A stretch of DNA of 32,000 nt from Desulfatiglandales bacterium (GCA_963662465.1 OY759599.1:6253292-6285291), one strand, 5' to 3'; numbered from the stretch's first letter, positions 2,759 to 20,320 are shown. Translations and numbers: made by a program. The notes: generated by a model from the sequence alone, not told the origin.

Positions 2759-3301
2759 ATGAGAAAAGTGCTCTACATTCTGGGTGGATTGGACGACAAC
2801 GACGTGGAGTGGTTGATCGCAAGAGGAGAGCGACGGCGGTTGCCTTCAGGCGAGGTGCTCATTTCCGAGGGGGATATGATTGAGGCCCTTTATATTTTGC
2901 TGGAGGGGGAGTTGGCGGCTTCGGTAAAAACCCATGAGGGTGCCCGTGAGTTGGGCCGCATGGCGGTGGGCGACATGGTGGGGGAGATTTCCTTGGTGGA
3001 CGACCGGCCCGCATCCGCAACCGTCACCGTGGTGCGGGACGCGTATGTATTGGCTATCCCCCGCTCGGCGCTGCTGCAAAAACTGGAAATCGAAGTGGGG
3101 TTCGCGGCAAGGTTCTATCACGCTGTGGCCCAGTTGCTCTCCTACCGCCTGCGGGATAACACGGCTCTGATCGCAGGCGAAGGCGGGCCGCCGGTCCCCG
3201 AGCTGGAGAAGGACGAGGACCTTCTCGGCCTGGATGTGTTGGACAATGTGCATATGGCGGGTCAGCGTTTTTCCCGCATCATGCGGCGGTTGGCCGGTTA
3301 G
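2759..3301 (+). CDS. cyclic nucleotide-binding (CAP/Crp effector-type) domain protein, stand-alone
   Basis: 180-aa ORF, GAGGA 8 nt upstream of ATG. cNMP-binding beta-roll signature GEVLISEGDMIEALYILLEGEL...GDMVGEISLVDDRPASATVTVVRDAYVLAIPRSAL. No HTH follows. Confidence 0.85.
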   Translation: MRKVLYILGGLDDNDVEWLIARGERRRLPSGEVLISEGDMIEALYILLEGELAASVKTHEGARELGRMAVGDMVGEISLVDDRPASATVTVVRDAYVLAIPRSALLQKLEIEVGFAARFYHAVAQLLSYRLRDNTALIAGEGGPPVPELEKDEDLLGLDVLDNVHMAGQRFSRIMRRLAG

Positions 3302-3339
3302 GTCAGAGAAGATTGCTATCAAATGCGGATGAAAAATCT

Positions 3340-3494
3340 GGTTCATCGCGGATTAACGTGAAATCGCGCTTTGAGATTGTTTCGGTTCGGGCTGTAGGTG
3401 CGACTTCAGTCGCACAGGGTCGGCTTAATGTGCGACTGAAGTCGCACCTACAATCGGCTCAGAAGCCAAATCTCACGCGAATCCACGATGAGCC
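3340..3494. mobile_element. miniature (155 bp) member of MITE family 1
   Basis: Ends ggttcatcgcggattaacgtgaaat and (revcomp) ggctcatcgtggattcgcgtgagat match the TIRs of the 448-bp copy at 24129-24576. Interior arm 3393-3416 (tgtaggtgcgacttcagtcgcaca) pairs perfectly with 3429-3452. Each arm is itself palindromic (gtgcgac-ttca-gtcgcac). Confidence 0.6.
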
Positions 3495-3499
3495 ATCTT

Positions 3500-3665
3500 G
3501 GCTCAATGCGGATTAACGTGAAAAAATGTTTCGCCACCAAGAAAAACCTCAGTGCATTCGTCATAAAGAGTCGTATGTATTCGGAACCCGACGATCCCAT
3601 GGTTATTTTTCCCACGTGGTAGGTCAGGGTGCGGCGCGTCCCGTTTTTTCCTCTGACCCTGTGGT
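3500..3665 (+). mobile_element. MITE family 1, left half only, fused to a truncated Rpn-A gene
   Basis: ggctcaatgcggattaacgtgaaaaaatgtttcgccacc... aligns with the left halves of the copies at 24129 and 15864. Homology ends inside a shared ggttgaaa (3663-3670), where Rpn-A codons (A)VETKGDN begin. Confidence 0.6.
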
Positions 3666-4098
3666 TGAAACCAAGGGAGACAACGAGCAGCGATATCGGT
3701 GGAAGCTGATCCTCATTAAAAGACTCTACCGCCAGGGATACGCTAAAGCAGATGTGATCAGGCTGTTTGCATTTATAGATTGGGTCATGTCCCTGCCCGC
3801 GGATATGGAAAAAGGCCTTTGGACGGAAATCCAAAAGTTCGAGGAGGAAACGAAAATGGAATATGTTACCAGCGTGGAAAGAATCGGTATAGAGAAAGGC
3901 ATGGAGAAAGGCAGCCTGAATCTTCTGTGCCGTCTCATTGCGAAGCGGTTTAAAACCGGTTCCGAATCGCTTCCGCCGATCTTCACGGGTTTGCGTGCGG
4001 AAGATATCGAAGATCTTGGAGAGCGTTTCCTGGATGCCGAGAGCGTGGATGAGATTCGTCGATGGGCGGAAGAGAAACGCAGGGCGAGGATGCAGTAG
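3663..4098 (+). pseudogene. Rpn-like family A, 5'-truncated copy A4 (C-terminal ~145 codons); nested ORF 3856-4098 intact
   Basis: Part of ORF 3526-4098. VETKGDNEQRYRWKLILIKRLYRQGY...EIRRWAEEKRRARMQ aligns with the C-terminus of the intact 332/336-aa copies. The first ~45 codons of the tracked ORF are MITE-derived. GAGGAGGA 3841-3848 precedes in-frame ATG 3856. Confidence 0.75.
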
Positions 4099-4423
4099 AG
4101 CAGGGACTCAGCCCATGGATATCTGGGTGGCGCTTTATAAAAAACATCAACGGACGCGGAGCGTCCACCCGGTTGTAATCCTTATCCCGTTCATCCTGTA
4201 TATCCATGTTCATTTTTCCATTGGTTCAAGAAATGGTATGCGTTCACGGGTTCATCGCTTCCTTCGGGATACCATTGTGTCGGAGCTGAAGGTGGAAGGT
4301 TCGTAGTGTGCCCGTAAGGCATGGAGTGGACATGCAACCAAACGTCTCACGGCGTCACTACGAACGTCGCAACAGAGCGCATTAACCCCCGGAAAATCCA
4401 CTTTCGCTGCCGAATAACCTTAG

Positions 4424-4595
4424 AGCCTGTTTAAAAATTATCCCTGCTGCGGTCGGCTGCGGCTTCCGATGGCTGCGTCAGCGACAAAAATGGGTCTTCA
4501 GCGTAGCTCGACTACGCTTTCAGCCCCATTTTTATCGCTTCCTTGCCCTCGAAAACCTCGCTCAACCTCGCGACGGGATAATTTTTAAACAGGCT
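4424..4595. mobile_element. MITE family 2 (172 bp, ~20-bp perfect TIRs)
   Basis: agcctgtttaaaaattatccc ... gggataatttttaaacaggct; the interior is one long imperfect foldback. Absent from the paralogous sequence at 17231-17246 (aaccttagaaacatgg = empty site). TTAG lies on both sides of the insertion. Confidence 0.8.
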
Positions 4596-4623
4596 TTTAG
4601 AACCGTGGACACTGAACCCGTGA

Positions 4624-4947
4624 ATGGTTACAGAAAAAGATAGAGCAAGATATTATGGTACTTCTAAAAAAAGAAACTGCCCCGAATGCGGAGGAGAAAT
4701 GCATTCCCGGCTTATCAATCTTCTATATAAAAAAGAGAAGTGCGAAATTCAGGTTGATGTGATCGGAATACCAGCCAATGTTTGTACGAAATGTTTTTAC
4801 AGAATTATTCCGGGCAAAATCGCAAAATATATTGATTCCCTGGTTGATCCGATATTTGAATCTGAAATCGGGCAGCAGGAAAAAATACTTCCTGCTCCAC
4901 ATGTAGGTATTTGGTTTCTGCCGGCAGAAAGAGAATTTTATTGCTAA
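4624..4947 (+). CDS. YgiT/MqsA-type zinc-ribbon protein; expression uncertain
   Basis: 107 aa with two CxxC knuckles (CPECGGEM ... IPANVCTKCFYRIIPGKIAKYIDSL), as in YgiT-type zinc fingers. Sits on a 312-bp segment (4632-4943) absent from the paralogous locus (17268|17269). ATG and stop are supplied by the flanks; no SD. Confidence 0.45.
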   Translation: MVTEKDRARYYGTSKKRNCPECGGEMHSRLINLLYKKEKCEIQVDVIGIPANVCTKCFYRIIPGKIAKYIDSLVDPIFESEIGQQEKILPAPHVGIWFLPAEREFYC

Positions 4948-5252
4948 TTTTCAATACCTCTGGCTATTCGTGTAATTCGAGTGTGGTTTTTGGCGCTCGA
5001 AGACATTCCTCTGCCAGGGTGCAGTACTCCCGGGAGCTTCCTTGGCATGCCGATCTTTCGGAATACAGTGATGAAGAGATTAAAGGCGCTGTTGTTTTGA
5101 GAGTTGTCTTTCTCCTTTTGAAGCATATTTTTTCAAGCGATCTTCCGGAAAAATTCCCTGGGATTTTGGGTCTGTTAAAAGACCTTCTGAATAAACGAAA
5201 CGGTCTTGAATATCTTGAGACGGTGTTGCGATATGTTAGCTTCAGGGAGTGA
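4944..5252 (+). pseudogene. Rpn/YhgA-like family C, central-region remnant (nuclease N-terminus missing), copy C1
   Basis: ..DLSEYSDEEIKGAVVLRVVFLLLKHIFSSDLPEKFPGILGLLKDLLNKRNGLEYLETVLRYV resembles the post-nuclease region of YhgA/Rpn proteins. Ends at TGA 5250-5252. The C-terminal module that follows is in another frame. Confidence 0.5.
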
Positions 5253-5320
5253 TCAAATAGGCAGTGTCGAGATTGAGGAGAGCGTTAGACAGGTTTTTTG
5301 AAGGTCAGGGAGGAGATATT

Positions 5321-5578
5321 ATGCCAACAGCATCTGAACAATGGATCGAGCAGGGAATTGAGCAGGGAATTGAGCAGGGAATGCAGAAGGGGGCTATGAA
5401 ACTTTTGTCCCGTCAAATTGTGAGGCGTTTTCAGGTCAGCTCTGATTCTGTTCATCCGATCTTTGCCGGCTTAACCACAGAGCAACTTGAAGAATTGGGG
5501 GAGAGGTTTCTTGAAGCTGAAAGTTTGGATGAAATTCAGGCTTGGGCAGAGGAAAAACGGTTGACAAAAGCGCAATAA
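5321..5578 (+). CDS. stand-alone Rpn C-terminal module (IEQG repeats + DUF4351-like helical tail), 85 aa
   Basis: GGGAGGAG 5308-5315, ATG 5321: MPTASEQWIEQGIEQGIEQGMQKGAMKLLSRQIVRRFQVSSDSVHPIFAGLTTEQLEELGERFLEAESLDEIQAWAEEKRLTKAQ. The ORF track extends it to a GTG at 5264. Confidence 0.65.
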   Translation: MPTASEQWIEQGIEQGIEQGMQKGAMKLLSRQIVRRFQVSSDSVHPIFAGLTTEQLEELGERFLEAESLDEIQAWAEEKRLTKAQ

Positions 5579-5587
5579 ATTGCCCTC

Positions 5588-5611
5588 GTTCCTACGCTCC
5601 GGCGTAGGAAC
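5588..5611. repeat. REP-like hairpin; unoccupied group II intron target
   Basis: gttcctacgc-tccg-gcgtaggaac (10-bp stem). The paralogous hairpin at 19805-19826 has the intron abutting it; here attgccct|cgttcc (5586|5587) is uninterrupted. Confidence 0.7.
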
Positions 5612-5829
5612 CCATACCGGGCGGCGTTGACACGCCAGGGCTGAACCCGCCTCCCATGACTTTTTGAAACATGATGTGAAAGTCTTTTTCATACCTTGAA
5701 AACCAACACCAGCTCCAAGCTCCGAGATCCAAATACGTTGCATATTTGTCTGTCAGGTTTTTCCTCAAACGGCTCACGACCAATTATTGGAACTGCAAAG
5801 GGTCTGGTTTCTGGTGGGGTGGGGGGGGG

Positions 5830-6017
5830 ATGCTTGAGGCAATCCAGCGATTCATCGATACCAATTCCCTCGACGCGGTATTTGATGTTCCGGCCTCGAT
5901 TATTGAAACATACAAAGACGATTTTGCGAAATATGTAACCCAGTCCGATTTGCTCCGTTTTCATAAGGTGTTTAACTATGTCCCCATGGCCGCCGGCGGT
6001 GAAAAAACTAGACCTTA
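5830..6017 (+). pseudogene. fragment of AAA_14/DUF4143-type ATPase gene
   Basis: LEAIQRFIDTNSLDAVFDVPASIIETYKDDFAKYVTQSDLLRFHKVFNYVPMAAGGEK resembles the central region of DUF4143 ATPases. No P-loop N-terminus and no C-terminus. Homology with the copy at 21285 starts at a G-tract (5821-5829). Confidence 0.55.
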
Positions 6018-6075
6018 GCAGATAGATTCCGTGTTGTGTCTGGAACTTTTGTTTAGTACAGACACACGGATTGAT
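6018..6075 (+). pseudogene. higA 3'-end remnant (~55 bp)
   Basis: gcagatagattccgtgttgtgtctggaacttttgtttagtacagacacacgg aligns with the last codons and downstream bases of both higA copies (about 13520-13575 and 20956-21011). Confidence 0.5.
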
Positions 6076-6186
6076 TGACAGAGCCCGTCAAATTGTTCAG
6101 AATAAAGTCAAAATTCATTGATAGGTGGCGCAGACTTTACTGGGTTTCCATTTTGATGCTCATAGAAGAGAAACGGGAGATACGCC

Positions 6187-6678
6187 ATGTCAGAGATTGA
6201 CAAATGGGATGAAGTGTTTGAACAACGCCTGACCGGCTTCTTAAAGGAGCATTTGGCCGAGCTCTTGACCAGCGAAGGCCTGAGTCGGCCTGCCAAGGTT
6301 TACGAGATAGAACTTCGGGAGCGGCTTGTGAGGGTGGAAGAGGCGATTAAACACCAGAGCGAGCTGATCCAAAAGACCCTCGACTTCATGGATGTGCGGT
6401 TCGGCGCCGTGGACAAGCGGTTTGAGGCGGTGGACAAGCGGTTCGAGGCGGTGGACAAGCGGTTCGAGGAATTGAGAGAGGATATGAATACACGGTTCGA
6501 GGCCGTGGATAAGCGGTTTGAAGAGCTGAGAGAGGATATGAATACACGGTTCGAGGCCGTGGATAAGCGGTTTGAGGCCGTGGATAGGCGCTTCAACTCG
6601 TTGCAGTGGCTGATAGGGGGAGGGTTTACCTTCCTGACCGTCGTTATCGTCCTTATGAAATTCCTCGTCGGCCCTTGA
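6187..6678 (+). CDS. tail-anchored coiled-coil protein with tandem repeats
   Basis: 163 aa, GGGAGA 7 nt upstream of ATG. Repeats RFEAVDKRFEAVDKRFEAVDKRFEELREDMNTRFEAVDKRFEELREDMNTRFEAVDKRFEAVDRRF (DNA repeats about 6394-6597). Single C-terminal hydrophobic helix LIGGGFTFLTVVIVLMKFLV. Confidence 0.75.
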   Translation: MSEIDKWDEVFEQRLTGFLKEHLAELLTSEGLSRPAKVYEIELRERLVRVEEAIKHQSELIQKTLDFMDVRFGAVDKRFEAVDKRFEAVDKRFEELREDMNTRFEAVDKRFEELREDMNTRFEAVDKRFEAVDRRFNSLQWLIGGGFTFLTVVIVLMKFLVGP

Positions 6679-6817
6679 GTTGCCGCTACGCCATGAATTT
6701 GTACCTTCCTTGAACTGCGCGGGACGTTCATAAGAAACTAAGAAACTCGCCAGGCGTACATTGATTTCCCGCTCGCCGAGGCCGCGTATCGGTTGTTATT
6801 CGAAAATTATTGCAAAG

Positions 6818-6863
6818 CGGCTGATTACGACAGTCCGTGGAAAAACGCTTCGGAATGTTATTT
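6818..6863 (+). pseudogene. Rpn-like family A 5' fragment (codons ADYDSPWKNASECYF)
   Basis: cggctgattacgacagtccgtggaaaaacgct.cggaatg.tatttc matches codons 12-26 of the intact copies (11398.., 22835..). Joined upstream directly to the post-B tail repeat and downstream to REP hairpins. Confidence 0.6.
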
Positions 6864-6868
6864 CCTCT

Positions 6869-6947
6869 CGTTCCCACGCTCCAGCGTGGGAATGCACTGT
6901 GGACGCTCAGCGCCGTTCGCACCGTTCCCACGCAGAGCGTGGGAACG
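6869..6947. repeat. two REP-like hairpins (6869-6894 and 6923-6947)
   Basis: cgttcccacgc-tcca-gcgtgggaatg and cgttcccacgc-aga-gcgtgggaacg. The second ends exactly at the 5' end of intron copy 1. Confidence 0.7.
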
Positions 6948-8850
6948 GTGCGCCTGTGAAGGCGCTTTATCAGTGCGGTGAAAGTCCGTACCGGAGTATG
7001 CCATAGCTCCGTAGCCGAAGGTAACTGCGTCGCCGCGAGGCGGGGTGGAGAGCAACCGGAGGCGAAAAGTCAGTCCGTAGGATGACGAACCCGATTCGGT
7101 GTCATGTGGTGGCGAGCCTACCGTTCCATGGTGAAGCCTGAAACTCACAGACCACGCTGTAATGGCGGTTAAAGCGATGGTTTGACGGCATGGTATGTTT
7201 GGGGTCGGAATGACTGGAAGGTAAAGCGAGATAAGCAGGGAGACCTGTCTCTTGGGGTGACAGGAGGCAGGAGTCAGAGTCCTCATAGTACCGTAGCGAC
7301 AGAACGGTCCTGCTAACAAGGCTTACGGCGTGAGACCAGTACCCGCCGCCTGCGTCGGATACCGGGTTGTGAAAAGCGCGGATAGCAAAACCGTGCCGAG
7401 GGAAGGAGGATAGGAAGATAGATACGGAAAGGTCATATAGATGCAGCTAAATCAAGCAGTCTCGGCAGTGTTGGAAACAACTAAACGCGAGGCAGAAACC
7501 CGATGGGATTGGGTGGAAGCATCGGTGTGGACGGAACGTATGTTGGCAGCCCTGGGTAACGGGGTGAAAGGTGGTAAATGGTACAGTTTGATGGATAAGG
7601 TGTTCGCCTTGTCGACGCTGGAAGCGGCTTGGGGACGTGTCAAAGCCAATAAAGGAGCGGCAGGGATAGACCGTATCAGCATAAAGCGCTTTAAGGAGCA
7701 GGCGGAGAAATACCTTGCCGAACTGCATGAAACCTTGAAAGCGGGAACGTACCGACCGGAAGCGGTAAAACGGGTATACATTCCGAAAAGCGACGGCAAA
7801 CAACGCCCGCTGGGGATACCCACGGTCAAAGACCGGGTAGTGCAGGCAGCGGTTAAAATGGTTATGGAGCCCATATTCGAGCATGAATTTCTGCCGATGA
7901 GTTACGGCTTCAGGCCGCAAAGAGGTTGCAAGGACGCGTTGCGAGAAGTAGACGCGCTTATTAAGGAAGGCTACACCTTCATACTGGACGCCGACCTGAA
8001 AAGTTACTTTGATACGATTCCGCACGATAAGCTGATGCAACAAGTCGAAATGCGCATCAGCGACGGCAAATTGCTCAATCTGATTCAAATGTTCCTGAAA
8101 CAGGACGTGATGGACGGCTTGGAAAGATGGACACCGACGGGTGGTTCGCCACAAGGGGCGGTAGTCAGCCCCTTGCTTGCGAATATTTACCTGCATCCTC
8201 TTGACAGCCTGATCGCGGAATCAGGTATGCGGATGGTGCGTTACGCAGACGACTTTGTTATCCTCAGCCGCAGTCAAACGGAAGCGGAGAATGCTTTGCA
8301 AAAGGTACGGGAGTGGGTACAGGCTAATGACCTGAGCTTACACCCGGACAAGACGCATCTTGGCGACTGTCGACAAAAGGGTCAGGGATTTGAATTCCTG
8401 GGATACCGGTTTGAGGCAGGAAAGCGCTGGATACGCAGTAAAAGCCGTAAAGCCCTTCGTGATAAAATCCGGGAAGAGACCCGGCGCAAACGTAGCGGAA
8501 GTATGGAAAGCATCATTGATGATCTGAACCCCATGCTTGAAGGCTGGTTTGGTTACTTCAAACACGCCTACCGCACTGAGTTTGCGGCGGTGGATAAGTT
8601 TGTCCGCCGACGCTTACGCGCCGTATTATTGCGTCGTAACAAACGCAAGGGCTGGGGCAAAAGCCTTGAAGCCCACCGCCGCTGGCCGAATGCCTACTTC
8701 GCGAAAATCGGGCTTTTCACTATGCATGAGGCCCGGTTAGCAGCGTGCCGATCCCGATGAGGAAACTATCGACCGGAGAGCCGTGTGCGGGAGAACCGCA
8801 TGCACGGTTCGGAGGGAGGGGAGAGCCAAGAGGCTCTTTCCTACCCCTAT
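6948..8850 (+). mobile_element. group II intron, copy 1 (1903 bp)
   Basis: 5' GTGCGCC at 6948. RT/maturase ORF sits in domain IV. Domain V-like gagccgtgtgcgggagaaccgcatgcacggttc (8778-8810), then domain VI and 3' end ..cctacccctAT (8850). Boundaries are where identity with the inverted copy 17900-19802 stops. Confidence 0.9.
7441..8760 (+). CDS. group II intron reverse transcriptase/maturase, no endonuclease domain
   Basis: 439 aa. RT blocks RPLGIPTVKDRVVQ, FILDADLKSYFDTI, SPLLANIYL, VRYADDFVILS (YADD), then maturase/X region GWFGYFKH... Ends without an HNH/En domain. Confidence 0.95.
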   Translation: MQLNQAVSAVLETTKREAETRWDWVEASVWTERMLAALGNGVKGGKWYSLMDKVFALSTLEAAWGRVKANKGAAGIDRISIKRFKEQAEKYLAELHETLKAGTYRPEAVKRVYIPKSDGKQRPLGIPTVKDRVVQAAVKMVMEPIFEHEFLPMSYGFRPQRGCKDALREVDALIKEGYTFILDADLKSYFDTIPHDKLMQQVEMRISDGKLLNLIQMFLKQDVMDGLERWTPTGGSPQGAVVSPLLANIYLHPLDSLIAESGMRMVRYADDFVILSRSQTEAENALQKVREWVQANDLSLHPDKTHLGDCRQKGQGFEFLGYRFEAGKRWIRSKSRKALRDKIREETRRKRSGSMESIIDDLNPMLEGWFGYFKHAYRTEFAAVDKFVRRRLRAVLLRRNKRKGWGKSLEAHRRWPNAYFAKIGLFTMHEARLAACRSR

Positions 8851-8904
8851 AGGGAGTGTAGTGCGTAAAAACGAGTATACTCTCCAACGGTTGTGATTTA
8901 CACC

Positions 8905-9682
8905 CGTACAGCTGTACCGCAAAGACGGCAGCGATGAATGGGTGTTGGCGCACGTGGAAGTGCAGGGGCAGAAAAAGAAACCGTTCCCTGAGAGGATGTA
9001 CACTTATAATTACCGAACATTTGACCTTTTTCATCGGAAAGTAGCCAGTATCGCGATTCTGGCGGATGAAAATCCTTTGTGGCGTCCGGATCATTTCAGT
9101 TATGACTTGTGGGGAAGTCGTGCCGGGCTGTGGTTTCCATGTGTGAAGCTTCTTGATTACCGTGAGAAATGGTTGGAACTGGAGGAGTCGACCAATCCCT
9201 TTGCCTCGGTTGTGATGGCGTATTTAAAGGCGGTTGAAACCAAGGGAGACAACGATCAGAGATACCGGTGGAAGCTGATTCTCATTAAAAGACTCTATCG
9301 CCAGGGATACGCTAAAGTAGATGTGATCAGGCTGTTTGCATTTATAGATTGGGTCATGTCCCTGCCTGCGGATATGGAAAAAGGCCTTTGGACGGAAGTC
9401 CAAAAGTTTGAGGAGGAAACGAAAATGGAATATGTTACCAGCGTGGAAAGAATCGGTATGGAGAAAGGTATGGAGAAAGGCATGGAGAAAGGCAGCCTGA
9501 ATCTTCTGTGCCGTCTCATTGCGAAGCGATTTAAAACCGGTTACGAATCGCTTCCGCTGATCTTCACCTTGGGTTTGCGTGCGGAAGATATCGAAGATCT
9601 TGGCGAGCGTTTCCTGGATGCCGAGAGTGTGGATGAGATTCGTCGATGGGCGGAAGAAAAACGCAGGGCGAGGATGCAGTAG
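8905..9682 (+). pseudogene. Rpn-like family A, 5'-truncated copy A1; nested ORF 9425-9682 intact
   Basis: Homology to the intact copies starts at VQLYRKDGSDEWVLAHVEVQGQ and runs to the stop; about 70 N-terminal codons are missing. 3 MEKG repeats (9458-9493). One extra codon (FTLGL vs FTGL). Confidence 0.75.
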
Positions 9683-9912
9683 TGCAGGGACTTAGCCCAT
9701 GGACATCTGGGTGGCACTCTGTAAAAAACATCAACGGACGCGGAGCGTCCACCCGGTTGGGGAGGGTGGCTTCAATTCCGGTTGTAATCCTTATCCTGTT
9801 CATCCTGTATATCCATGTTCATTTTTCCATTGGTTCAAGAAATGGATAATGATTATGTCGCTGTTCACAGGAGAAGTTCTTCTCGGCACGCAAGCGCCGG
9901 TGTTTCATTTTA

Positions 9913-9941
9913 TTGACAATTCTCTTTAAATGAGCCACAAT
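9913..9941 (+). promoter_or_regulatory. sigma-70-type promoter of Rpn-B1, probably leaderless mRNA
   Basis: TTGACA (9913-9918) - 17 nt - CACAAT (9936-9941). ATG at 9949 is 7 nt after the -10 box, with no SD. Confidence 0.5.
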
Positions 9942-9948
9942 CGACACC

Positions 9949-10923
9949 ATGGTCGAACATGACAACAGTTACAAGCTTCTTTTTTCCCATGCGGAGATGG
10001 TCCGGGATTTGCTTCTGGGTTTTGTGAAAGAGGAGTGGGTCCGGAAACTCGATCTGGCGTCATTGGAACGGGTGAGCGGGTCCTATGTAAGCGATGATAT
10101 CCGGGATCGGCACGACGATATTGTCTGGCGGGTGAAGTGGGGCCGAGAGTGGCTCTATGTGTACATCTTGATCGAGTTTCAGTCAACCATCGATAAATAC
10201 ATGCCACTGCGTGTCCTGGTGTATGTCGGGCTTTTATATCAGGACCTGATTCGGGAAAAGAAACTGGGACCTTCGGGCAAATTGCCGGCTGTTCTGCCGG
10301 TGGTACTGTATAATGGGAGCCGGCGCTGGGACAAGTCCACCGAATTGTGGGACCTGATCGAGGATGTGCCTGGGGGGCTATCCCAATATCGTCCCCGGTT
10401 CACATTCTTGCTGCTGGACGAAGGCGCTTACCGGGATGAAGATCTGAAACCGCTTAAGAATCTTGTTTCGGCCCTGTTCCGTTTGGAAAACAGCCGGAAC
10501 CCGGAACGGATCAGGGAGGTGGTAACAGTGCTGTTGGATTGGCTGGCTGCGCCCGAACAGGCGAGTTTGAGACGCGCCTTTACGGTATGGTTTAATCGGG
10601 TATTTTTTCCGTCCCGAGGAAAGGAAATGATACCCCCTGAATTTGAAGAACTGACGGAGGTACGTGCCATGCTGGCTGAAACCGTTGCGGAATGGAAAGA
10701 AGAATGGAAGAGGGATGGGCTGAAAGAAGGCCTGAAGAAAGGCCTGAAGAAAGGCCGGAAGGAGGGTGAAGCGAACATTCTTTTAAAGCTTATTGAGATG
10801 AAATTTGGACGAATAAGCCTAATAGATCGAAAAAGGGTTCAATCGGCTGACAGTGAAACTCTGTTGAGATGGGGGAAACAAATTCTCACAGCCAACAAAA
10901 TGGATGAGATATTCAGACTGTAA
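9949..10923 (+). CDS. Rpn/YhgA-like PD-(D/E)XK recombination-promoting nuclease family protein, family B copy B1 (324 aa)
   Basis: DNSYKLLFSHAEMVRDLLLGFV...SGSYVSDDIRDRHDDIVWRVKW..WLYVYILIEFQSTIDKYMPLRVLVY...LPAVLPVVLYNG is the YhgA/Rpn N-terminal core with a D...E-x-Q motif. Internal GGAGG 10656-10660 + in-frame ATG 10669. LKEG/LKKG repeats about 10717-10767. Confidence 0.85.
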   Translation: MVEHDNSYKLLFSHAEMVRDLLLGFVKEEWVRKLDLASLERVSGSYVSDDIRDRHDDIVWRVKWGREWLYVYILIEFQSTIDKYMPLRVLVYVGLLYQDLIREKKLGPSGKLPAVLPVVLYNGSRRWDKSTELWDLIEDVPGGLSQYRPRFTFLLLDEGAYRDEDLKPLKNLVSALFRLENSRNPERIREVVTVLLDWLAAPEQASLRRAFTVWFNRVFFPSRGKEMIPPEFEELTEVRAMLAETVAEWKEEWKRDGLKEGLKKGLKKGRKEGEANILLKLIEMKFGRISLIDRKRVQSADSETLLRWGKQILTANKMDEIFRL

Positions 10924-11364
10924 GTCTAAGGAAAATTGGGACAGGCAAATAATGCCTCTATCAGCCCGCCATGTCATGGAACGGAAGTGGGACGTCCATA
11001 AAAAGCTAAAAAAGTCGCCAGGCGTACAATGATTTCCCGCTTGCCGAGGCCGCGTATCGGTTGTTATTCGAAAATTATTGCAAAAGGGAATAGGCTCAGA
11101 CCTCAATCTTCTGACAGAATCAATCCCCCTTCCAGCGGGATTAACGGGATAAAAGAAAAAAGGTTATCAGTATACTGAAAATCACGTAAATCCTGTCACA
11201 ATAACCCGGTAATATTCAAAAGGGACAGGCCGATAATTTTATATTGGCGACGTGGGCCGAATTCTCCTTGATCTCCATTGCTTCCATCAATTTCCAAACA
11301 TCAAAAGAACCTTGCCCGACCTTGGGATTTCTGATATTCTGGTAGTATATTCAAACTCGAATGG

Positions 11365-12363
11365 GTGGAACAAAAAATGACCTTTGACTCTGAAACGGCT
11401 GATTACGACAGTCCGTGGAAAAACGCTCTGGAATGCTATTTTCGTGAATGCATTGAGTTTTTTCTTCCTGATATGGCGCAGGATGTGGATTGGGAAAGGG
11501 GATGCCTTTTTTTGGACAAGGAATTTCAGCAGGTGTCCAAAAATGCGGCTGTCGGTCGCAGATATGCCGACAAACTCGTACAATTGTACCGCAAAGACGG
11601 CAGCGATGAATGGGTGTTGGCGCACGTGGAAGTGCAGGGGCAGAAAAGGAAACCGTTCCCTGAGAGGATGTACACTTATAATTACCGAACCTTTGACCTT
11701 TTTCATCGGGAAGTAGCCAGTATCGCGATTTTGGCGGATGAAAATCCTTTGTGGCGTCCGGATCATTTCAGTTATGACTTGTGGGGAAGTCGTGCCGGGC
11801 TGTGGTTTCCATGTGTAAAGCTTCTTGATTACCGTGAGAAATGGTCGGAACTGGAGGCATCGACCAATCCCTTTGCCTCGGTTGTGATGGCGCATTTAAA
11901 GGCGGTTGAAACCAAGGGAGACAACGAACAGCGATACCGGTGGAAGCTGATCCTCATTAAAAGGCTCTACCGCCAGGGATACGCTAAAGCAGATGTGATC
12001 AGGCTCTTTGCATTTATAGATTGGGTCATGTCCCTGCCCGCGGATATGGAAAAAGGCCTTTGGACGGAAATCCAAAAGTTCGAGGAGGAAACGAAAATGG
12101 AATATGTTACCAGCGTGGAAAGAATCGGTATGGAGAAAGGCATGGAGAAAGGCATGGAGAAAGGCATGGAGAAAGGCAGTCTGAATCTTCTGTGCCGTCA
12201 AATTGCGAAGCGGTTTAAAACCGGATACGAATCGCTTCCGCCGATCTTCACGGGTTTGCGTGCGGAAGATATCGAAGATCTTGGCGAGCGTTTCCTGGAT
12301 GCCGAGAGCGTGGATGAGATTCGTCGATGGGCGGAAGAAAAACGCAGGGCGAGGATGCAGTAG
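11365..12363 (+). CDS. Rpn-like PD-(D/E)XK family A protein with DUF4351-type C-terminus, intact copy A2 (332 aa)
   Basis: ..DYDSPWKNALECYFRECIEFFLP...YADKLVQLYRKDGSDEWVLAHVEVQGQK (D...E-x-Q) ...NPFASVVMAHLKAVETKG...FAFIDWVMSLP..., 4 MEKG repeats (12130-12177), tail LNLLCRQIAKRF...EDIEDLGERFLDAESVDEIRRWAEEKR. Likelier start is ATG 11377. Internal GAGGAGGA 12082-12089 + ATG 12097. Confidence 0.8.
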   Translation: MEQKMTFDSETADYDSPWKNALECYFRECIEFFLPDMAQDVDWERGCLFLDKEFQQVSKNAAVGRRYADKLVQLYRKDGSDEWVLAHVEVQGQKRKPFPERMYTYNYRTFDLFHREVASIAILADENPLWRPDHFSYDLWGSRAGLWFPCVKLLDYREKWSELEASTNPFASVVMAHLKAVETKGDNEQRYRWKLILIKRLYRQGYAKADVIRLFAFIDWVMSLPADMEKGLWTEIQKFEEETKMEYVTSVERIGMEKGMEKGMEKGMEKGSLNLLCRQIAKRFKTGYESLPPIFTGLRAEDIEDLGERFLDAESVDEIRRWAEEKRRARMQ

Positions 12364-12462
12364 AGCTGAGGGACTCAGCCCATGGACATCTTTCCCAAAA
12401 ACCTCGATTTAAGTTCACAGATTTCTTGTTTTTCATGACAGAAAACCTGGAAATAAGGTACT

Positions 12463-12662
12463 AAACAGCTTGAAGAGGAATTCCAGGTTTCGGTGGATGC
12501 TTACCTTGATTTTTGTAAAGATCTTGGGGAGACTCCAGAAAAACTATATTCAGGGAAGATTGTGTTGCGCTTGCTGCTCAAATAGCCAACCAGAGCCTCA
12601 ACGTATGGGCAGCAGAGCATTTGATCAAAAATGCCGAACAAGAACTTCAAAAGCCTTTTTGA
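12463..12662 (+). pseudogene. hicB: hicB antitoxin C-terminal remnant, frameshifted
   Basis: ..QLEEEFQVSVDAYLDFCKDLGETPEK.. then, in shifted frames, ..ALAAQIANQSLNVWAAEHLIKNAEQELQKPF*. It continues the hicB N-terminal fragment found at 24721-24909 (..QLEKEFQVSVD). Confidence 0.5.
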
Positions 12663-12849
12663 AGAAATTGGTTTCCCTGCCTGAGTCTCCGATTTTTCTT
12701 GCACATTAATAGTATGCCCCTACGCTAAACGCAACATGCACAAAATAGACCCTCTTCCGAGCATCTTCAGGATAAAAAAAGCCTGTATAGTGAAGTACCT
12801 TTTATCGGAACTTATAGCCACATAAGTTCTGACAATCAGAACCTTATCC

Positions 12850-12878
12850 TTGACACATCGAGCCTCAGAGTGTATTGA
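12850..12878 (+). promoter_or_regulatory. sigma-70-type promoter of higBA-1, short or no leader
   Basis: TTGACA (12850-12855) - 17 nt - TATTGA (12873-12878). higB ATG at 12885 and no SD. Same element at 20286-20314. Confidence 0.45.
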
Positions 12879-12884
12879 AATTAT

Positions 12885-13190
12885 ATGCACATAATCGCCC
12901 GTAACTCACTAATTGAATTTGGGGTAAAATATCCGGACGGCAGAACGGCTGTTGACAGGTGGTGGACCATATGCAGAAAAAATACTTTTTGTTCTTTCTC
13001 CGACCTGAAAAAGACATTCGGCACAGCCGATATGGTAAACAGATGTGTTATTTTCAACATCGGTGGCGGAAAATATAGATTGGTGGTAAGCGTCAACTTT
13101 GTGGGCCGGAGAATGTGGGTAAAGTATGTGTTACCCCATAATGAATATGAAAAACTTGATCTGAAGGAGGACTCAAAATGCCGGCCGTAG
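12885..13190 (+). CDS. higB: type II toxin HigB (RelE-fold mRNA interferase), copy 1
   Basis: 101 aa: MHIIARNSLIEFGVKYPD...FSDLKKTFGTADMVNRCVIFNIGGGKYRLVVSVNF..MWVKYVLPHNEYEKL is the HigB_toxin family pattern (MHII.R..L.EF....P.a...W.......w....d.k..f..a......vFNI.GNKYRLi..i.y......i.fiGTH.EYDK). Confidence 0.85.
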   Translation: MHIIARNSLIEFGVKYPDGRTAVDRWWTICRKNTFCSFSDLKKTFGTADMVNRCVIFNIGGGKYRLVVSVNFVGRRMWVKYVLPHNEYEKLDLKEDSKCRP

Positions 13191-13558
13191 ATCGGATAGA
13201 CTCCAGAGATTTATATCCACTGATGGTTATAAGAACCCAGGATGATTACAAAAAGGCACTTGGTTCCATGGAGACTGTTTTTGATGAGGAGACAGGCCCC
13301 CTGGCGGATTATGCAGAAACACTTGCCATCCTGATTGTGCACTATGAGGAACAGAATTTTCTATTGGAGAAAAAACAGGGGGTGGAAGTCCTGAAGTTTC
13401 TTATGGAACAGAATGGTCTCAAACAAAGGGATCTGGTGGGGACTCTTGGAGGGAAGTCGACTGTTTCGGAGATACTTAATGGGAAAAGGCCATTGAATCT
13501 CCAACACATCAGGATCTTGGCAGATAGATTCCATGTTGTGCCTGGAACCTTTGTTTAA
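13178..13558 (+). CDS. higA: HigA antitoxin (XRE-type HTH), copy 1
   Basis: 126 aa, AAGGAGG before the ATG, 13-nt overlap with higB. C-terminal HTH LKFLMEQNGLKQRDLVGTLGGKSTVSEILNGKRPLNLQHIRILADRFHVVPGTFV, as in E. coli-type HigA. Confidence 0.85.
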   Translation: MPAVDRIDSRDLYPLMVIRTQDDYKKALGSMETVFDEETGPLADYAETLAILIVHYEEQNFLLEKKQGVEVLKFLMEQNGLKQRDLVGTLGGKSTVSEILNGKRPLNLQHIRILADRFHVVPGTFV

Positions 13559-13649
13559 CACGGACACACAGGCTGACACCGACTTTTTCACCTATCGCAG
13601 CTTCTTCCATGACGAAGAAACCGGCATCCTTCAAAACAGCTCAAAAGTA

Positions 13650-13737
13650 GTTTACACTTTTGAAAAGTGAAAGGTGAAAAGTTGACGACTCTTCACTCTT
13701 CGGCATCCGGTGCATGACTTTTCAAAAAAGTGTAAAC
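13650..13737. repeat. 19/21-nt inverted repeat flanking 48 nt
   Basis: gtttacacttttgaaaagt (13650-13668) vs acttttcaaaaaagtgtaaac (13717-13737). Unique to this copy of the post-higA region. Confidence 0.5.
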
Positions 13738-13754
13738 TGCGAGATGAAGGATGC

Positions 13755-14225
13755 CCATCGACCAATCCCTTTGCCTCGGTTGTGATGGCGCATTTAAAGG
13801 CGGTTGAAACCAAGGGAGGCAACGATCAGAGATACCGGTGGAAGCTGATCCTCATCAAAAGGCTCTACCGCCAGGGATACGCTAAAGCAGATGTGATCAG
13901 GCTGTTTGCATTTATAGATTGGGTCATGTCCCTTCCCGCGGATATGGAAAAAGGCCTTTGGACGGAAATCCAAAAGTTCGAGGAGGAAACGAACATGGAA
14001 TATGTTACCAGCGTAGAAAGAATCGGTATGGAGAAAGGCAGCCTGAATCTTCTGTGCCGTCTCATTGCGAAGCGGTTTAAAACCGCTTACGAATCGCTTC
14101 CGCCGATCTTCACGGGTTTGCGTGCGGAAGATATCGAAGATCCTGGCGAGCGTTTCCTGGATGCCGAGAGCGTGGATGAGATTCGTCGATGGGCGGAAGA
14201 GAAACGCAGGGCGAGGATGCAGTAG
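13755..14225 (+). pseudogene. Rpn-like family A, 5'-truncated copy A5; nested ORF 13995-14225 intact
   Basis: Part of ORF 13710-14225. Homology begins at STNPFASVVMAHLKAVETKG. 1 MEKG repeat (14028-14039). GAGGAGGA 13980-13987 + ATG 13995. Confidence 0.75.
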
Positions 14226-14455
14226 AGCAGAGACTCAGCCCATGGACATCTGGGTGGTGCTTTGTAAAAAACATCAACGGACGCGGAGCGGCCACTCGGT
14301 TGGGGAGGGTGGCTTCAATTCCGGTTGCAATCCTTATCCCGTTCATCCTGTATATCCATGTTCATTTTTCAATTGGTTCAAGAAATGGATAATGATCATG
14401 TCGCTGTTCACAGGGGAAGTTCTTCCCGGCACGCAAGCGCCGGTGTTTCATTTTA

Positions 14456-14484
14456 TTGACAATTCTCTTTAAATGAGCCACAAT
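14456..14484 (+). promoter_or_regulatory. sigma-70-type promoter of Rpn-B2, probably leaderless
   Basis: TTGACA (14456-14461) - 17 nt - CACAAT (14479-14484); ATG at 14492. Identical to 9913-9941. Confidence 0.5.
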
Positions 14485-14491
14485 CGACACC

Positions 14492-15550
14492 ATGGTCGAA
14501 CATGACAACAGTTACAAGCTTCTTTTTTCCCATGCGGAGATGGTCCGGGATTTGCTTCTGGGTTTTGTGAAAGAGGAGTGGGTCCGGAAGCTCGATCTGG
14601 CGTCATTGGAACGGGTGAGCGGGTCCTATGTAAGCGATGATATCCGGGATCGGCATGACGATATTGTATGGCGGGTGAAGTGGGGTCGAGAGTGGCTCTA
14701 TGTGTACATCCTGATCGAGTTTCAGTCAACCGTCGATATATACATGCCACTGCGCGTCCTGGTGTATATCGGGCTTTTATATCAGGACCTGATCCGGGAA
14801 AAGAAACTGGGACCTTCGGGCAAATTGCCGGCTGTTCTGCCGGTGGTACTGTATAATGGGAGCCGGCGCTGGGACAAGTCCACCGAGTTGTGGGACCTGA
14901 TCGAGGATGTGCCTGGGGGGCTATCCCAATATCGTCCCCGGTTTACATTCTTGCTGCTGGACGAAGGCGCTTACCGGGATGAAGATCTGAAACCGCTTAA
15001 GAATCTTGTTTCGGCCCTGTTCCGTTTGGAAAACAGCCGGGACCCGGAACGGATCAGGGAGGTGGTAACAGCGCTGTTGGATTGGCTGGCTGCGCCGGAA
15101 CAGGCGAGTTTGAGACGCGCCTTTACGGTATGGTTTAATCGGGTATTTTTTCCGTCCCGAGGAAAGGAAATGATACCCCCTGAATTTGAAGAACTGACGG
15201 AGGTACGTGCCATGCTGGCTGAAACCGTTGCAGAATGGAAAGAAGAATGGAAGAGGGATGGCCGAAAGGAAGGCCTGAAAGAAGGCCGGAACGAAGGCCT
15301 GAAAGAAGGCCGGAACGAAGGCCTGAAAGAAGGCCGGAACGAAGGCCTGAAAGAAGGCCGGAACGAAGGTCGGAAGGAGGGTCGGAAGGAGGGGGAAGCA
15401 AACATTCTTTTAAAGCTTATTGAACTGAAGTTTGGACCCATAAACCTGAAAGACCGAAAACTGGTTCAATCCGCTGACAGCGAAACCCTGTTGAGATGGG
15501 GAAAACAAATTCTCACAGCCAACAAAATGGATGAGATATTCAGACTGTAA
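14492..15550 (+). CDS. Rpn/YhgA-like nuclease family protein, family B copy B2 (352 aa)
   Basis: Near-identical to B1 except for four perfect 24-nt units gaaggcctgaaagaaggccggaac (15269-15364; EGLKEGRN x4), giving 28 extra aa. Internal GGAGG 15199-15203 + in-frame ATG 15212. Confidence 0.85.
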   Translation: MVEHDNSYKLLFSHAEMVRDLLLGFVKEEWVRKLDLASLERVSGSYVSDDIRDRHDDIVWRVKWGREWLYVYILIEFQSTVDIYMPLRVLVYIGLLYQDLIREKKLGPSGKLPAVLPVVLYNGSRRWDKSTELWDLIEDVPGGLSQYRPRFTFLLLDEGAYRDEDLKPLKNLVSALFRLENSRDPERIREVVTALLDWLAAPEQASLRRAFTVWFNRVFFPSRGKEMIPPEFEELTEVRAMLAETVAEWKEEWKRDGRKEGLKEGRNEGLKEGRNEGLKEGRNEGLKEGRNEGRKEGRKEGEANILLKLIELKFGPINLKDRKLVQSADSETLLRWGKQILTANKMDEIFRL

Positions 15551-15815
15551 GTCTAAGGAAAATTGGGACAGGCAAATAATGCATCTATCAGCCCGCCATG
15601 TCATGGAACGGAAGTGGGATGTCCATAAAAAGCTAAGAAAGTCGCCAGGCGTACATTGATTCCCCGCTTGCCGAGGCCGCGTATCGGTTGTTATTCGAAA
15701 ATTATTGCAGAAGGGAATAGGTTCAGACCTCAATCTTCTGACAGGATCAACTGGATTAACTGGATAAAAGAAAAAAGGTTATAAGTATCCTGAAAATCAA
15801 GTAAATCCTGTCACA

Positions 15816-16883
15816 TTTGACCTTTTTCATCGGAAAGTAGCCAGTATCGCGATTCTGGCGGATTAACGTGAAAAAATGTTTCGCCACCAGGAAAAACCTC
15901 GGTGCATTCGTCATAAAGAATCGTATGTATTCGGAACCCGACGAACCCATGGTTATTTTTCCCACGCGGTAGGTCAGGGTGCGGCGCGTCCCGTTTTTTC
16001 CTCTGACGCTGTTGAATCCCAAATGGGTTGAAATCCATCAAACGACCGAAAAAACTCCAACGCGCCGTTCCCTGACATTTTTGCGACCACCCCAACGTCG
16101 CCAATGGGATTATCGGTTTATGCCGAATCAATGTCAGGTAATCCCGCGTGTGGACATGTGGGATTTTGAATGTTCATGGGGGTTGGCGTGGAAATCGAAA
16201 TTTCGCGGTAAAAATGTGAACGCGGGACAACCTGACCTACTGACTATACAACTTTTCCCCTCCGGGAATGTTTTTACGTCAATCCGCGATGAACCAAAAA
16301 TCCTTTGTGGCGTCCGGATCATTTCAGTTATGACTTGTGGGGAAGTCGTGCCGGGCTGTGGTTTCCATGTGTAAAGCTTCTTGATTACCGTGAGAAATGG
16401 TCGGAACTGGAGGCATCGACCAATCCCTTTGCCTCGGTTGTGATGGCGCATTTAAAGGCGGTTGAAACCAAAGGAAACAACGATCAGCGATACCGGTGGA
16501 AGCTGATCCTTATTAAAAGACTCTACCGCCAGGGATACGCTAAAGCAGATGTAATCAGGCTGTTTGCATTTATAGATTGGGTCATGTCCCTGCCTGCGGA
16601 TATGGAAAAAGGCCTTTGGACGGAAATCCAAAAGTTCGAGGAGGAAACGAAAATGGAATATGTTACCAGCGTGGAAAGAATCGGTATGGAGAAAGGCAGC
16701 CTGAATCTTCTGTGCCGTCAAATTGCGAAGCGGTTTAAAACCGGTTACGAATCGCTTCCGCCGATCTTCACGGGTTTGCGTGCGGAAGATATCGAAGATC
16801 TTGGCGAGCGTTTTCTGGATGCCGAGAGCGTGGATGAGATTCGTCGATGGGCGGAAGAGAAACGCAGGGCGAGGATGCAGTAG
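15816..16883 (+). pseudogene. Rpn-like family A copy A6: 5'-deleted and split by MITE family 1; nested ORF 16653-16883 intact
   Basis: 15816-15863 encodes FDLFHRKVASIAILAD, joined upstream to the A-gene upstream region at a shared aca. The MITE occupies 15864-16295. The gene resumes at NPLWRPDHFSYDLWG.. and runs to the stop (ORF 16305-16883). 1 MEKG repeat (16686-16697). Confidence 0.75.
15864..16295 (+). mobile_element. MITE family 1 copy inside Rpn-A6 (left TIR shortened by 22 nt)
   Basis: ..taacgtgaaaaaatgtttcgcc ... gaatgtttttacgtcaatccgcgatgaacc. Co-linear with 24151-24576. No credible ORF inside. Confidence 0.75.
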
Positions 16884-17268
16884 AGCTGAGGGTCTCAACC
16901 CATGGACATCTGGGTGGCGCTTTGTAAAAAACATCAACGGACGTGGAGCGTCCACCTGGTTGGGGAGGGTGGCTTCAATTCCGGTTGTAATCCTTATCCC
17001 GTTCATCCTGTATATCCATGTTCATTTTTCCATTGGTTCAAGAAATGGTATGCGTTCACGGGTTCATCGCTTTCTTCGGGATACCATTGTGTCGGAGCTG
17101 AAGGTGGAAGGTTCGTAGTGTGCCCGTAAGGGCATGGGGTGGGCATGCAACCAAACGCCTCACTGCGTCACTACGAACGTCGCAACAGGGCGCATTAACC
17201 CCCGGAAAATCACACTTTCGCTGCCGAATAACCTTAGAAACATGGACACTGAACCAGTGAACGGTTAC

Positions 17269-17577
17269 CTAATTTCAAATACCTCTGGCTATTCGTGTAA
17301 TTCGAGGGTGGTCTTTGGCGCTCGAAGACATTCCTCTGCCAGGGTGCCGTATTTCCGGGATCTTCCTTGGCATGCCGATCTTTCGGAATACAGTGATGAA
17401 GAGATTAAAGGCGCTGTTGTTTTGAGAGTTGTCTTTCTCCTTTTGAAGCATATTTTTTCAAGCGATCTTCCGGAAAAATTCCCTGGGATTTTGGGTCTGT
17501 TAAAAGACCTTCTGAATAAACGAAACGGTCTTGAATATCTTGAGACGGTGTTGCGATATGTTAGCTTCAGGGAGTGA
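17269..17577 (+). pseudogene. Rpn/YhgA-like family C central-region remnant, copy C2
   Basis: Paralogue of 4944-5252, with the same TGA and the same frame break before the C-terminal module. Confidence 0.5.
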
Positions 17578-17645
17578 TCAAATAGGCAGTGTCGAGATTG
17601 AGGAGAGCGTTAGACAGGTTTTTTGAAGGTCAGGGAGGAGATATC

Positions 17646-17891
17646 ATGCCAACAGCAGCTGAACAATGGATTGAGCAGGGAATTGAGCAGGGAATGCAGC
17701 AGGAGGCTATGAAACTTTTGTCTCGTCAAATTGTGAGGCGTTTTCAGGTCAGCTCTGATTCTGTTCAACCGATCTTTGCCGGCTTAACCACAGAGCAACT
17801 TGAAGAATTGGGGGAGAGGTTTCTTGAAGCTGAAAGTTTGGATGAAATTCAGGCTTGGGCAGAGGAAAAACGGTTGACAAAAGCGCAATAA
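17646..17891 (+). CDS. stand-alone Rpn C-terminal module (2 IEQG repeats), 81 aa
   Basis: GGGAGGAG 17633-17640, ATG 17646: MPTAAEQWIEQGIEQGMQQEAMKLLSRQIVRRFQVSSDSVQPIFAGLTTEQLEELGERFLEAESLDEIQAWAEEKRLTKAQ. Confidence 0.65.
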   Translation: MPTAAEQWIEQGIEQGMQQEAMKLLSRQIVRRFQVSSDSVQPIFAGLTTEQLEELGERFLEAESLDEIQAWAEEKRLTKAQ

Positions 17892-17899
17892 ATTACCCT

Positions 17900-19802: not shown

Positions 19803-19804
19803 CA

Positions 19805-19826
19805 TTCCCACGCTCCGGCGTGGGAA
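19805..19826. repeat. REP-like hairpin abutting intron copy 2
   Basis: ttcccacgc-tccg-gcgtgggaa. On the minus strand it reads gcgtgggaatg|GTGCG. Confidence 0.7.
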
Positions 19827-19948: not shown

Positions 19949-20094
19949 AAAGATCTTGGGGAGACTCCAGAAAAACCATATTCAGGGAAGTTTGTGTTGC
20001 GCTTGCTGCCCAAATAGCTAACCAGAGCCTCAACGCATAGGCAGCAGAACATTTGATCTAAAATGCCGAACAAGAACTTCAAAAGCCTTTTTGA
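19949..20094 (+). pseudogene. hicB: hicB C-terminal remnant, copy 2 (stops and frameshift)
   Basis: KDLGETPEKPYSGKFVLRLLPK* then ..AAQIANQSLNA*AAEHLI*NAEQELQKPF. Paralogue of 12463-12662. Confidence 0.5.
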
Positions 20095-20314: not shown

Positions 20315-20320
20315 AATTCT

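Follow-up and report, generated by a model that had tools for sequence, protein, structure and literature searches.

The closest described relatives of the genes considered here are the recombination-promoting nucleases (Rpn) of the RpnL/RpnS type, in which experiments have demonstrated that an internal start yields a small protein, RpnS, that acts as antitoxin to the RpnL nuclease (Zhong et al. 2023, PNAS, PMC10400941). RpnS repeats begin 8-20 residues after the Met, the repeat number sets RpnL-RpnS specificity, and one added repeat abolishes neutralisation unless both partners have it (PMC10400941). Tandem duplication creates rpn arrays, and stand-alone RpnS genes annotated as DUF4351 exist (PMC10400941). 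In classical type II toxin-antitoxin (TA) families, orphan antitoxins are abundant and were proposed to be anti-addiction modules (Horesh et al. 2020, PMC7192599). The stretch of 32,000 nucleotides from a Desulfatiglandales bacterium analysed here in full (GCA_963662465.1 OY759599.1:6253292-6285291; hereafter the window), which lies within a complete 8.16 Mb genome, contains an island of Rpn-type genes of the PD-(D/E)XK class, each organised as a gene within a gene and each, when full length, encoding a putative toxin.

Rpn-related genes of three divergent families, A, B and C, fill 3.5-24.6 kb of the window. The tally given in the original prediction, four full-length Rpn-like nuclease genes (A2, A3, B1 and B2) versus 10 intact nested C-terminal open reading frames (ORFs; below, modules), holds for the window. 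It had been explained by biased decay, in which nuclease halves are lost by independent deletions while the modules are selectively retained. That explanation was not supported, as the lesions are partly shared, remnant A5 has lost its module, module and non-module parts are equally constrained, and gene conversion occurs among the copies. The orphan modules are probably what a small number of lesions to the nuclease half left behind, duplicated, young and refreshed by gene conversion, with no selection specific to the orphans. These lesions would comprise a single insertion of a miniature inverted-repeat transposable element (MITE), a single insertion of a group II intron together with hairpin repeats, accompanied by deletions, a truncation at a segmental-duplication boundary, and a truncation of family C; segmental duplication would then have copied them.

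All 10 nested ORFs are open, and each has GAGGAGG or GGAGG 7-9 nt ahead of an in-frame ATG (at 3856, 9425, 12097, 13995, 16653 and 23534 in family A, 10669 and 15212 in family B, and 5321 and 17646 in family C). Of 15 distant homologues of family A, 13 have kept the module Met. A 4-aa repeat tract starts 8-17 residues past the Met in every module, consisting of one to five MEKG repeats from residue 12 in family A, two to three IEQG repeats from residue 9 in family C, and a G(L/R)(K/N)E-type tract from about residue 17 in family B. As judged by sequence, the nested ORFs match the features of published RpnS antitoxins, and their translation is predicted. The label 'antitoxin-like' in the original prediction is thus well founded, given DUF4351, the internal Shine-Dalgarno (SD)-ATG and 4-aa repeats placed as in RpnS (PMC10400941).

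Both the system type, an RpnL toxin with a nested RpnS antitoxin, and stand-alone modules have already been published (PMC10400941). As there, a PD-(D/E)XK Rpn nuclease with C-terminal DUF4351 includes an internal SD-ATG that delimits a small protein, the 4-aa repeat tract is hypervariable, arrays are made by duplication, and small modules also occur without the full-length gene. Unlike the published proteins, family A is missed by the Pfam Transposase_31 and NCBIfam Rpn models. Unlike stand-alone RpnS genes, the orphans are visible truncation products with 190-520 bp of dead nuclease sequence rather than clean downstream duplicates. The host also differs from published Rpn hosts, being a Desulfatiglandales-like bacterium in a phylum with DUF4351 in 3 of 151 sampled genomes. 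The features of the island are as follows.

3663-4098, + strand: A1 remnant, A gene positions 540-999; module 3856-4098 with two repeats (IEKG, MEKG); private Y-to-S replacement.
4944-5252, + strand: C1 dead nuclease remnant, only the last ~50 Transposase_31 profile positions; ends in TGA.
5321-5578, + strand: C1 nested module, DUF4351, three IEQG repeats, GGAGG-ATG.
6721-6863, + strand: 5' scraps of an intron-split A copy (Ai), a B-A intergenic piece (equivalent to 10989-11084) joined to A positions 29-77 (equivalent to 11393-11441).
6864-8854, + strand: two REP-like (repetitive extragenic palindrome) hairpins, then a group II intron, replacing A gene positions 78-209.
8902-9682, + strand: Ai remnant, A gene positions 210-999; module 9425-9682 with three repeats; private P-to-L replacement and in-frame +3 bp.
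9949-10923, + strand: B1, full-length Rpn, Pfam Transposase_31 and DUF4351; module 10669-10923.
11365-12363, + strand: A2, full-length family A Rpn-like nuclease, D69 and E89-x-Q91; module 12097-12363 with four MEKG repeats.
13756-14225, + strand: Ah remnant, A gene positions 494-999; module 13995-14225 with one repeat; private L-to-P replacement in a conserved helix.
14492-15550, + strand: B2, full-length Rpn; module 15212-15550 with an expanded repeat tract.
15813-16296, + strand: A4 5' fragment (A gene positions 325-378), then a 430-bp MITE (15867-16296).
16297-16883, + strand: A4 remnant, A gene positions 377-999; module 16653-16883 with one repeat.
17269-17891, + strand: C2 dead nuclease remnant and module; TGA at 17575-17577, module 17646-17891 with two IEQG repeats; duplicate of C1 (95.8% identity).
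17896-19815, - strand: second copy of the group II intron, 100% identical and inverted, following the hairpin directly downstream of C2.
22802-23812, + strand: A3, full-length family A gene; module 23534-23812 with five MEKG repeats.
23859-24576, + strand: A5, fifth A remnant, A part 23859-24128 and MITE 24129-24576; without the 3' part and without a module.

The junctions of the A remnants were located with BLASTN, the full copy A2 (11365-12363) serving as query on the window. Positions 3663, 8902, 13756 and 16297 correspond to 11904, 11574, 11858 and 11741 in A2 (gene positions 540, 210, 494 and 377), which confirmed that the four module-bearing remnants have four different 5' junctions, and all four read without stop from the junction to the common stop. 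These junctions had been taken for independent events. They are so only in part, as A1, A4 and two further remnants trace to one MITE insertion and the two C loci represent one duplicated lesion.

A4 is interrupted by the 430-bp MITE, which has terminal inverted repeats (TIRs; GGCTCAAYGCGGATTAACGTGAAAA, about 25 bp) and a target duplication AAAATCC; a 22-bp microhomology deletion is found at the left end of A4. The first 146 bp of this MITE (3517-3662, 95.9% identical to 15867-16012) are fused directly to A1. The same MITE is present at the same A position in A5 (24129-24576) and, 0.85 Mb away, at genome 5415199-5415656, where the remnant extends to 5416336. A4 and A5 also have a common 5' deletion (junction of 11200 with 11689). 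Given the same MITE at the same A site in four remnants (A1, A4, A5 and the genome 5415199 copy), one MITE insertion inactivated their common ancestor, and A1's own junction is a later deletion within an already dead gene. The possibility that the 430-bp insert is an A-specific sequence was ruled out by the finding of at least 10 genome copies with TIRs and 7-8 bp target duplications (e.g. at 1751321, 3114419, 5355253 and 6371349). A 157-bp mini-MITE with the same ends has at least 70 genome copies, including window positions 3340-3495 just upstream of 3517-3662, and one of them (5413880-5414034) has separately hit the A remnant at genome 5413685-5414731.

The copy at 8902 (Ai), described originally as truncated, is not a simple truncation, since a 5' scrap (6815-6863) lies beyond two hairpin repeats and a group II intron. 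In this copy a 308-bp deletion removed the start codon, gene positions 78-209 were replaced by the two REP-like hairpins (GTTCCCACGC..GCGTGGGAAC), and the intron homed behind them. The intron at 6935-8854 (+) includes a reverse transcriptase/maturase ORF (7441-8760) and an Rfam RF00029 match (8776-8850). Its second copy at 17896-19815 (-), 9 kb away, is 100% identical and inverted, and each copy stands directly behind a GTTCCCACGC..GCGTGGGAAC hairpin repeat; recombination between the two would invert most of the Rpn island.

The start of Ah (13756) coincides with the left boundary of a 2.1-kb A-B block, a segmental duplicate of 9188-11200. The interval between A3 and A5 lacks an entire B gene that the other units have. 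The native region upstream of A is deleted in all four module-bearing remnants (A1, Ai, Ah and A4).

The two family C loci share an identical TGA and an identical frame break ahead of the open module, exactly as the original prediction had it, and their modules differ by one IEQG repeat and four residues. Both are held by one duplicated A-C block (3663-4424 = 16460-17238; 4944-5586 = 17269-17899), and C1 and C2 are a single duplicated lesion. A 520-bp segment between A1 and C1 (4424-4944) is missing from the duplicate A4-C2 block; it includes most of an ORF (4624-4947) for 107 aa with two CxxC pairs (zinc-ribbon-like) and no Pfam match.

The whole genome was further surveyed by an iterated search with hidden Markov models in all six reading frames. 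Module-retaining remnants beyond the window were found at genome 5413952-5414728, 5415791-5416333 and 6421774-6422568. The last of these (minus strand, ~136 kb past the 3' end of the window) is a B-type remnant from about residue 157 with an intact module of seven repeats, and its open frame runs upstream into an unrelated segment that is HicB-like by eye. The census also revealed fragments with the N-terminal part only (1569949-1570551, 7144383-7144727 and 7522453-7522860), a frameshifted gene (92461-93478) and fragments with a partial module (827413-827982 and 3969749-3969862). Together with A5 (23859-24576), the N-only and partial-module fragments contradict the claim that every remnant keeps its module. 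Counted as independent events genome-wide, ~5-6 are module-retaining versus 4-6 module-lacking. The non-module part makes up 73% of the A gene, and random point-like lesions would therefore mostly spare the module. Hence, a bias towards module retention is not statistically compelling.

The comparison of dN/dS and indel density proposed in the original prediction showed the same constraint in the module and the dead nuclease part. Over all pairs of A copies (gene positions 541-999), pN/pS is 0.14 in the non-module part and 0.17 in the module. With the two extra-window copies added in, the changes that occur in a single remnant only are 6 synonymous and 5 nonsynonymous in the non-module part (dN/dS about 0.22) and 6 and 6 in the module (about 0.29). 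Substitution density between sister pairs is 28/807 and 17/708, respectively (p = 0.23). Between C1 and C2, there are 2 synonymous and 6 nonsynonymous changes in the dead upstream part and 1 and 4 in the module, with dN/dS about 1 in both. Frameshifting indels are lacking from both parts of the A remnants, as compared with 4.3 expected from flanking DNA in the non-module part and 3.8 in the module. The intactness of the module ORFs fits the neutral expectation for substitutions, the probability of no disabling substitution among 17 being 0.37.

The original prediction had itself named equal and near-zero divergence of module and non-module portions as an observation that would speak against selective retention. 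The two portions were found to be essentially equal, though their divergence is not near zero. The alternative considered there, a mechanistic bias combined with too little time for decay, fits better than selective retention. Selection specific to orphan modules is not required by the data, nor was any detected.

Gene conversion or recombination among the paralogues is pervasive, on three lines of evidence. Firstly, 47 of the 91 informative site pairs fail the four-gamete test in the 460-bp stretch common to eight A copies, and the failures include copies 0.85 Mb apart. Secondly, A1 and A4, descended from one MITE event, carry alternative 2-nt alleles (Q/L) at A2 positions 12200-12201 that are also present in A3 and A2; descendants of that event carry one, two and three repeats. 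Thirdly, B1 and B2 are mosaic, with pS of 0.058 in the nuclease part versus 0.32 in the module tail (10669-10923 versus 15212-15550), where five residue changes are clustered in EMKFGRISLIDRKRV / ELKFGPINLKDRKLV. The B1/B2 pattern suggests module swapping, or insulation of the modules, between paralogues. As conversion brings variation already filtered in intact genes into the remnants, dN/dS is uninformative on selection acting on the remnants themselves. Branch-specific dN/dS on a tree was dropped because half of the informative site pairs fit no tree.

Why the modules are nevertheless still open may be accounted for by four circumstances. Most of the target, 73%, is non-module. Loss of the antitoxin beside an active nuclease would be counter-selected, and the nuclease would therefore have to die first, a survivorship bias. 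The copies would be young, sister copies being 2-5% diverged. Lastly, gene conversion among the eight family A copies may overwrite remnants with intact-gene sequence.

The alternative that survives best is selected retention, in which orphan RpnS-like modules are kept as stand-alone antitoxins that buffer a resident RpnL, provide anti-addiction or immunity against an incoming Rpn with matching repeats, or act as decoys. It is considered unlikely, and several observations nonetheless weigh for it and against the by-product explanation. All 10 modules are open with their own SD-ATG. The modules are less diverged than non-coding flanks (17/708 versus 39/857 substitutions; Fisher p = 0.03), and the depletion of indels in the remnants (P about 0.01-0.02 for each part) exceeds what youth alone explains. 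A further species has independently lost the nuclease and kept the module. Of 10 congeners, 2 were found to have the A family. One of these (G010) has a single A copy, in locus L001, which is syntenic with the 5.41 Mb cluster of this genome; another lesion, the loss of 115 bp (gene positions 293-407), has broken that copy and left its one-repeat module intact. Among 69 DUF4351 matches from five cyanobacterial genomes, 24 fall in frames of <200 aa, and the 37 matches to the A-type nuclease domain are almost all of full length with no N-only remnant, a count that covers the A-type nuclease domain alone and is incomplete to that extent. A precedent for functional orphans is the translated stand-alone RpnS ypaA of E. 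coli (PMC10400941).

Cyanobacteria were chosen for this survey because DUF4351 occurs in so few genomes of the bacterium's own phylum that no local orphan statistics are possible. A general asymmetry of C-terminal over N-terminal remnants does exist, and it agrees with the stand-alone RpnS genes (PMC10400941) and the abundance of orphan antitoxins, proposed to serve in anti-addiction (PMC7192599). Like those of classical type II systems, the antitoxin here outlasts the toxin, with the same candidate roles of anti-addiction, cross-talk or decaying remnant. The anti-addiction concept for orphan antitoxins was reportedly put forward by Saavedra De Bast et al. in 2008. Unlike in classical type II systems, toxin and antitoxin here occupy one reading frame, so that a 3' lesion hits both and only a 5' lesion separates them; the C-over-N asymmetry is therefore built into the gene structure.

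The remaining evidence disfavours selected retention. The non-module part of the remnants is equally or more constrained, which selection specific to the module cannot explain, and dN/dS in the C modules is about 1. The congener retains its module though no full-length A gene was found in its genome, which is 92% complete. Comparison of L001 3001-3847 with genome 5413685-5414731 gave divergences that fall along the gene, from 6.7% (N part) through 3.4% (non-module 3' part) to 0.9% (module), and genes flanking the L001 copy are 6.4-7.1% diverged from this genome. Synonymous divergence falls likewise (pS 0.12, 0.09 and 0.02). Because it is equally low in the module, the low divergence there indicates recent exchange rather than selection at the protein level.

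Repeat numbers also do not match. The in-window A orphans A1, Ai, Ah and A4 have 2, 3, 1 and 1 repeats, versus 4 in A2 and 5 in A3, and none equals either full-length gene, whereas one extra repeat abolished neutralisation in the published system (PMC10400941). The extra-window remnant 5413952-5414728 has five repeats, the number of A3, two of them being IEKG variants. The four in-window A orphan modules carry five private replacements (L-to-P, Y-to-S, G-to-A, P-to-L, and M-to-I in a repeat) and one in-frame +3 bp, and the two extra-window A orphans carry two more; the A2 and A3 modules have none. The L-to-P replacement in the 13995 module (Ah) affects a position that is hydrophobic in 15 of 15 homologues, lies inside a predicted helix and is probably helix-breaking. 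Thus, the equal dN/dS, the ratio of about 1 in the C modules and the repeat mismatch distinguish the orphans from a functional stand-alone RpnS of the ypaA kind, in a comparison of low power that is limited by gene conversion.

With the native A upstream region deleted in all four remnants, orphan expression would need read-through or an internal promoter. A promoter scan of 3300-18000 gave 12 sites versus 14.5 expected in shuffles, none of them within A upstream of the modules, and is uninformative. Sequencing runs containing the region do exist. In three metatranscriptomes examined on 12400-14400, RNA contigs covered multi-copy module unitigs only and left the unique higBA neighbour uncovered; the DNA run that is the probable source showed the same fragmentation. 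These contigs were rejected as evidence of orphan expression, as they are environmental and represent multi-copy module sequence, the presence of the organism is unproven and the DNA run is fragmented alike. On 13935-14230, marine and aquatic metatranscriptome contigs (>=97% identity) cover the A module region alone, one of them with two extra IEKG repeats. As such contigs cover the module but leave higBA bare, near-identical A modules circulate in other environmental genomes.

Less probable still, and doubtful, is that the truncated promoter-less copies form a silent reservoir from which conversion moves repeat-number and helix variants into the expressed full-length genes. The pilS/pilE system of Neisseria and vlsE of Borrelia are silent-cassette gene-conversion systems of this kind. 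Like them, the island includes truncated promoter-less paralogues near expressed genes and mosaic sequence, although here the likeness is speculative; unlike them, the island copies have no demonstrated directionality, recombination signal or phenotype. Consistent with donor cassettes are the pervasive four-gamete failures among A copies, even 0.85 Mb apart, the occurrence of one, two and three repeats and of module alleles common to A2 or A3 among descendants of one MITE event, and the different ancestry of the B1/B2 module and the B nuclease part. RpnL has been speculated to drive such recombination itself (PMC10400941). Against donor cassettes, 12-bp tandem repeats change in number by slippage without a donor, no conserved recombination signal was found, and the evidence comes from a single genome. 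If true, donor cassettes would change RpnL and RpnS specificity together under phage pressure, possibly promoted by the Rpn nucleases.

A purely mechanistic 3' polarity, in which rearrangements and insertions hit the 5' half preferentially without any selection, even against toxin-only products, is very improbable: MITEs have inserted independently twice (at A positions ~320 and ~377), both insertions and that of the hairpins and intron do lie in the first 40% of A at AT-rich targets, and the 13756 copy starts at the edge of the 2.1-kb duplicated block, but segmental duplication should truncate copies at the 3' and the 5' end equally often, distant genomes without these elements show the asymmetry too, and the events are few.

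The assignment of the three families to Rpn rests on different grounds. B1 and B2 match Pfam PF04754 (Transposase_31, YhgA/Rpn) at E 4.6e-30 and 3.6e-29, respectively, and NCBIfam RpnA/TIGR01784 weakly, and the family C upstream remnant covers only PF04754 profile positions 150-200 (E 0.0014). PF14261 (DUF4351) passes its cut-off with A (E 2.2e-8) and with C (2.2e-11) and falls short of it with B (E 6e-4 to 1e-3). The N-domain of family A matched no Pfam or NCBIfam model, leaving DUF4351 as the only recognised domain, and BLASTP of A against B gave no significant match but a weak module alignment. Comparison of A-type and B-type alignments by hhalign gave E 0.0012 with a low probability of 19%, the catalytic D...E-x-Q motifs being in register. 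D69, E89 and Q91 of family A are invariant across 15 homologues (Cyanobacteria, Chloroflexota and others).

An AlphaFold2 model of A2 (pLDDT 74, pTM 0.64) had as its two best Swiss-Prot folds E. coli RpnC (P31665) and the Salmonella pSLT051 Rpn (P37415), with E 1e-6 and 2e-6 and probability 1.00, aligned over residues 9-305 with a TM score of just 0.32. Structure comparison of the model with the PDB gave weak matches to PD-(D/E)XK nucleases, and a PDB sequence search with A2 and B1, DUF4351 domain included, matched no chain. The C-terminal domain of the model includes helices 251-284, 300-312 and 316-331, which make up the DUF4351 three-helix domain. Family A is thus predicted to have the Rpn fold, the link to Rpn being provided by fold and profile comparison alone.

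DUF4351 has 23 matches in this genome, yet is rare in the phylum, and the nearest family A relatives beyond the genus (<=58% identity) are from Cyanobacteria and Chloroflexota. This suggests that the Rpn families may have been acquired horizontally and then expanded locally. Apart from the Rpn genes, the island includes two higBA copies (12517-13622 and 19949-21058), which show a uniform 4.6% difference across higB, higA and the upstream non-coding DNA.

The gene-within-a-gene TA organisation of Rpn was described only in 2023, and the decay of such nested systems has been undocumented; the island lays such a process open. MITEs, an intron and deletions have struck the nuclease half, which the nested antitoxin ORF survives, and the resulting remnants have been duplicated and made more alike by gene conversion. 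The apparently striking tally of four nucleases versus 10 modules needs no special selection, and counting remnants as independent, or applying dN/dS to multi-copy families, can mislead. If the orphans are functional, they would represent natural specificity variants, with one to five repeats, for the published repeat-number rule.

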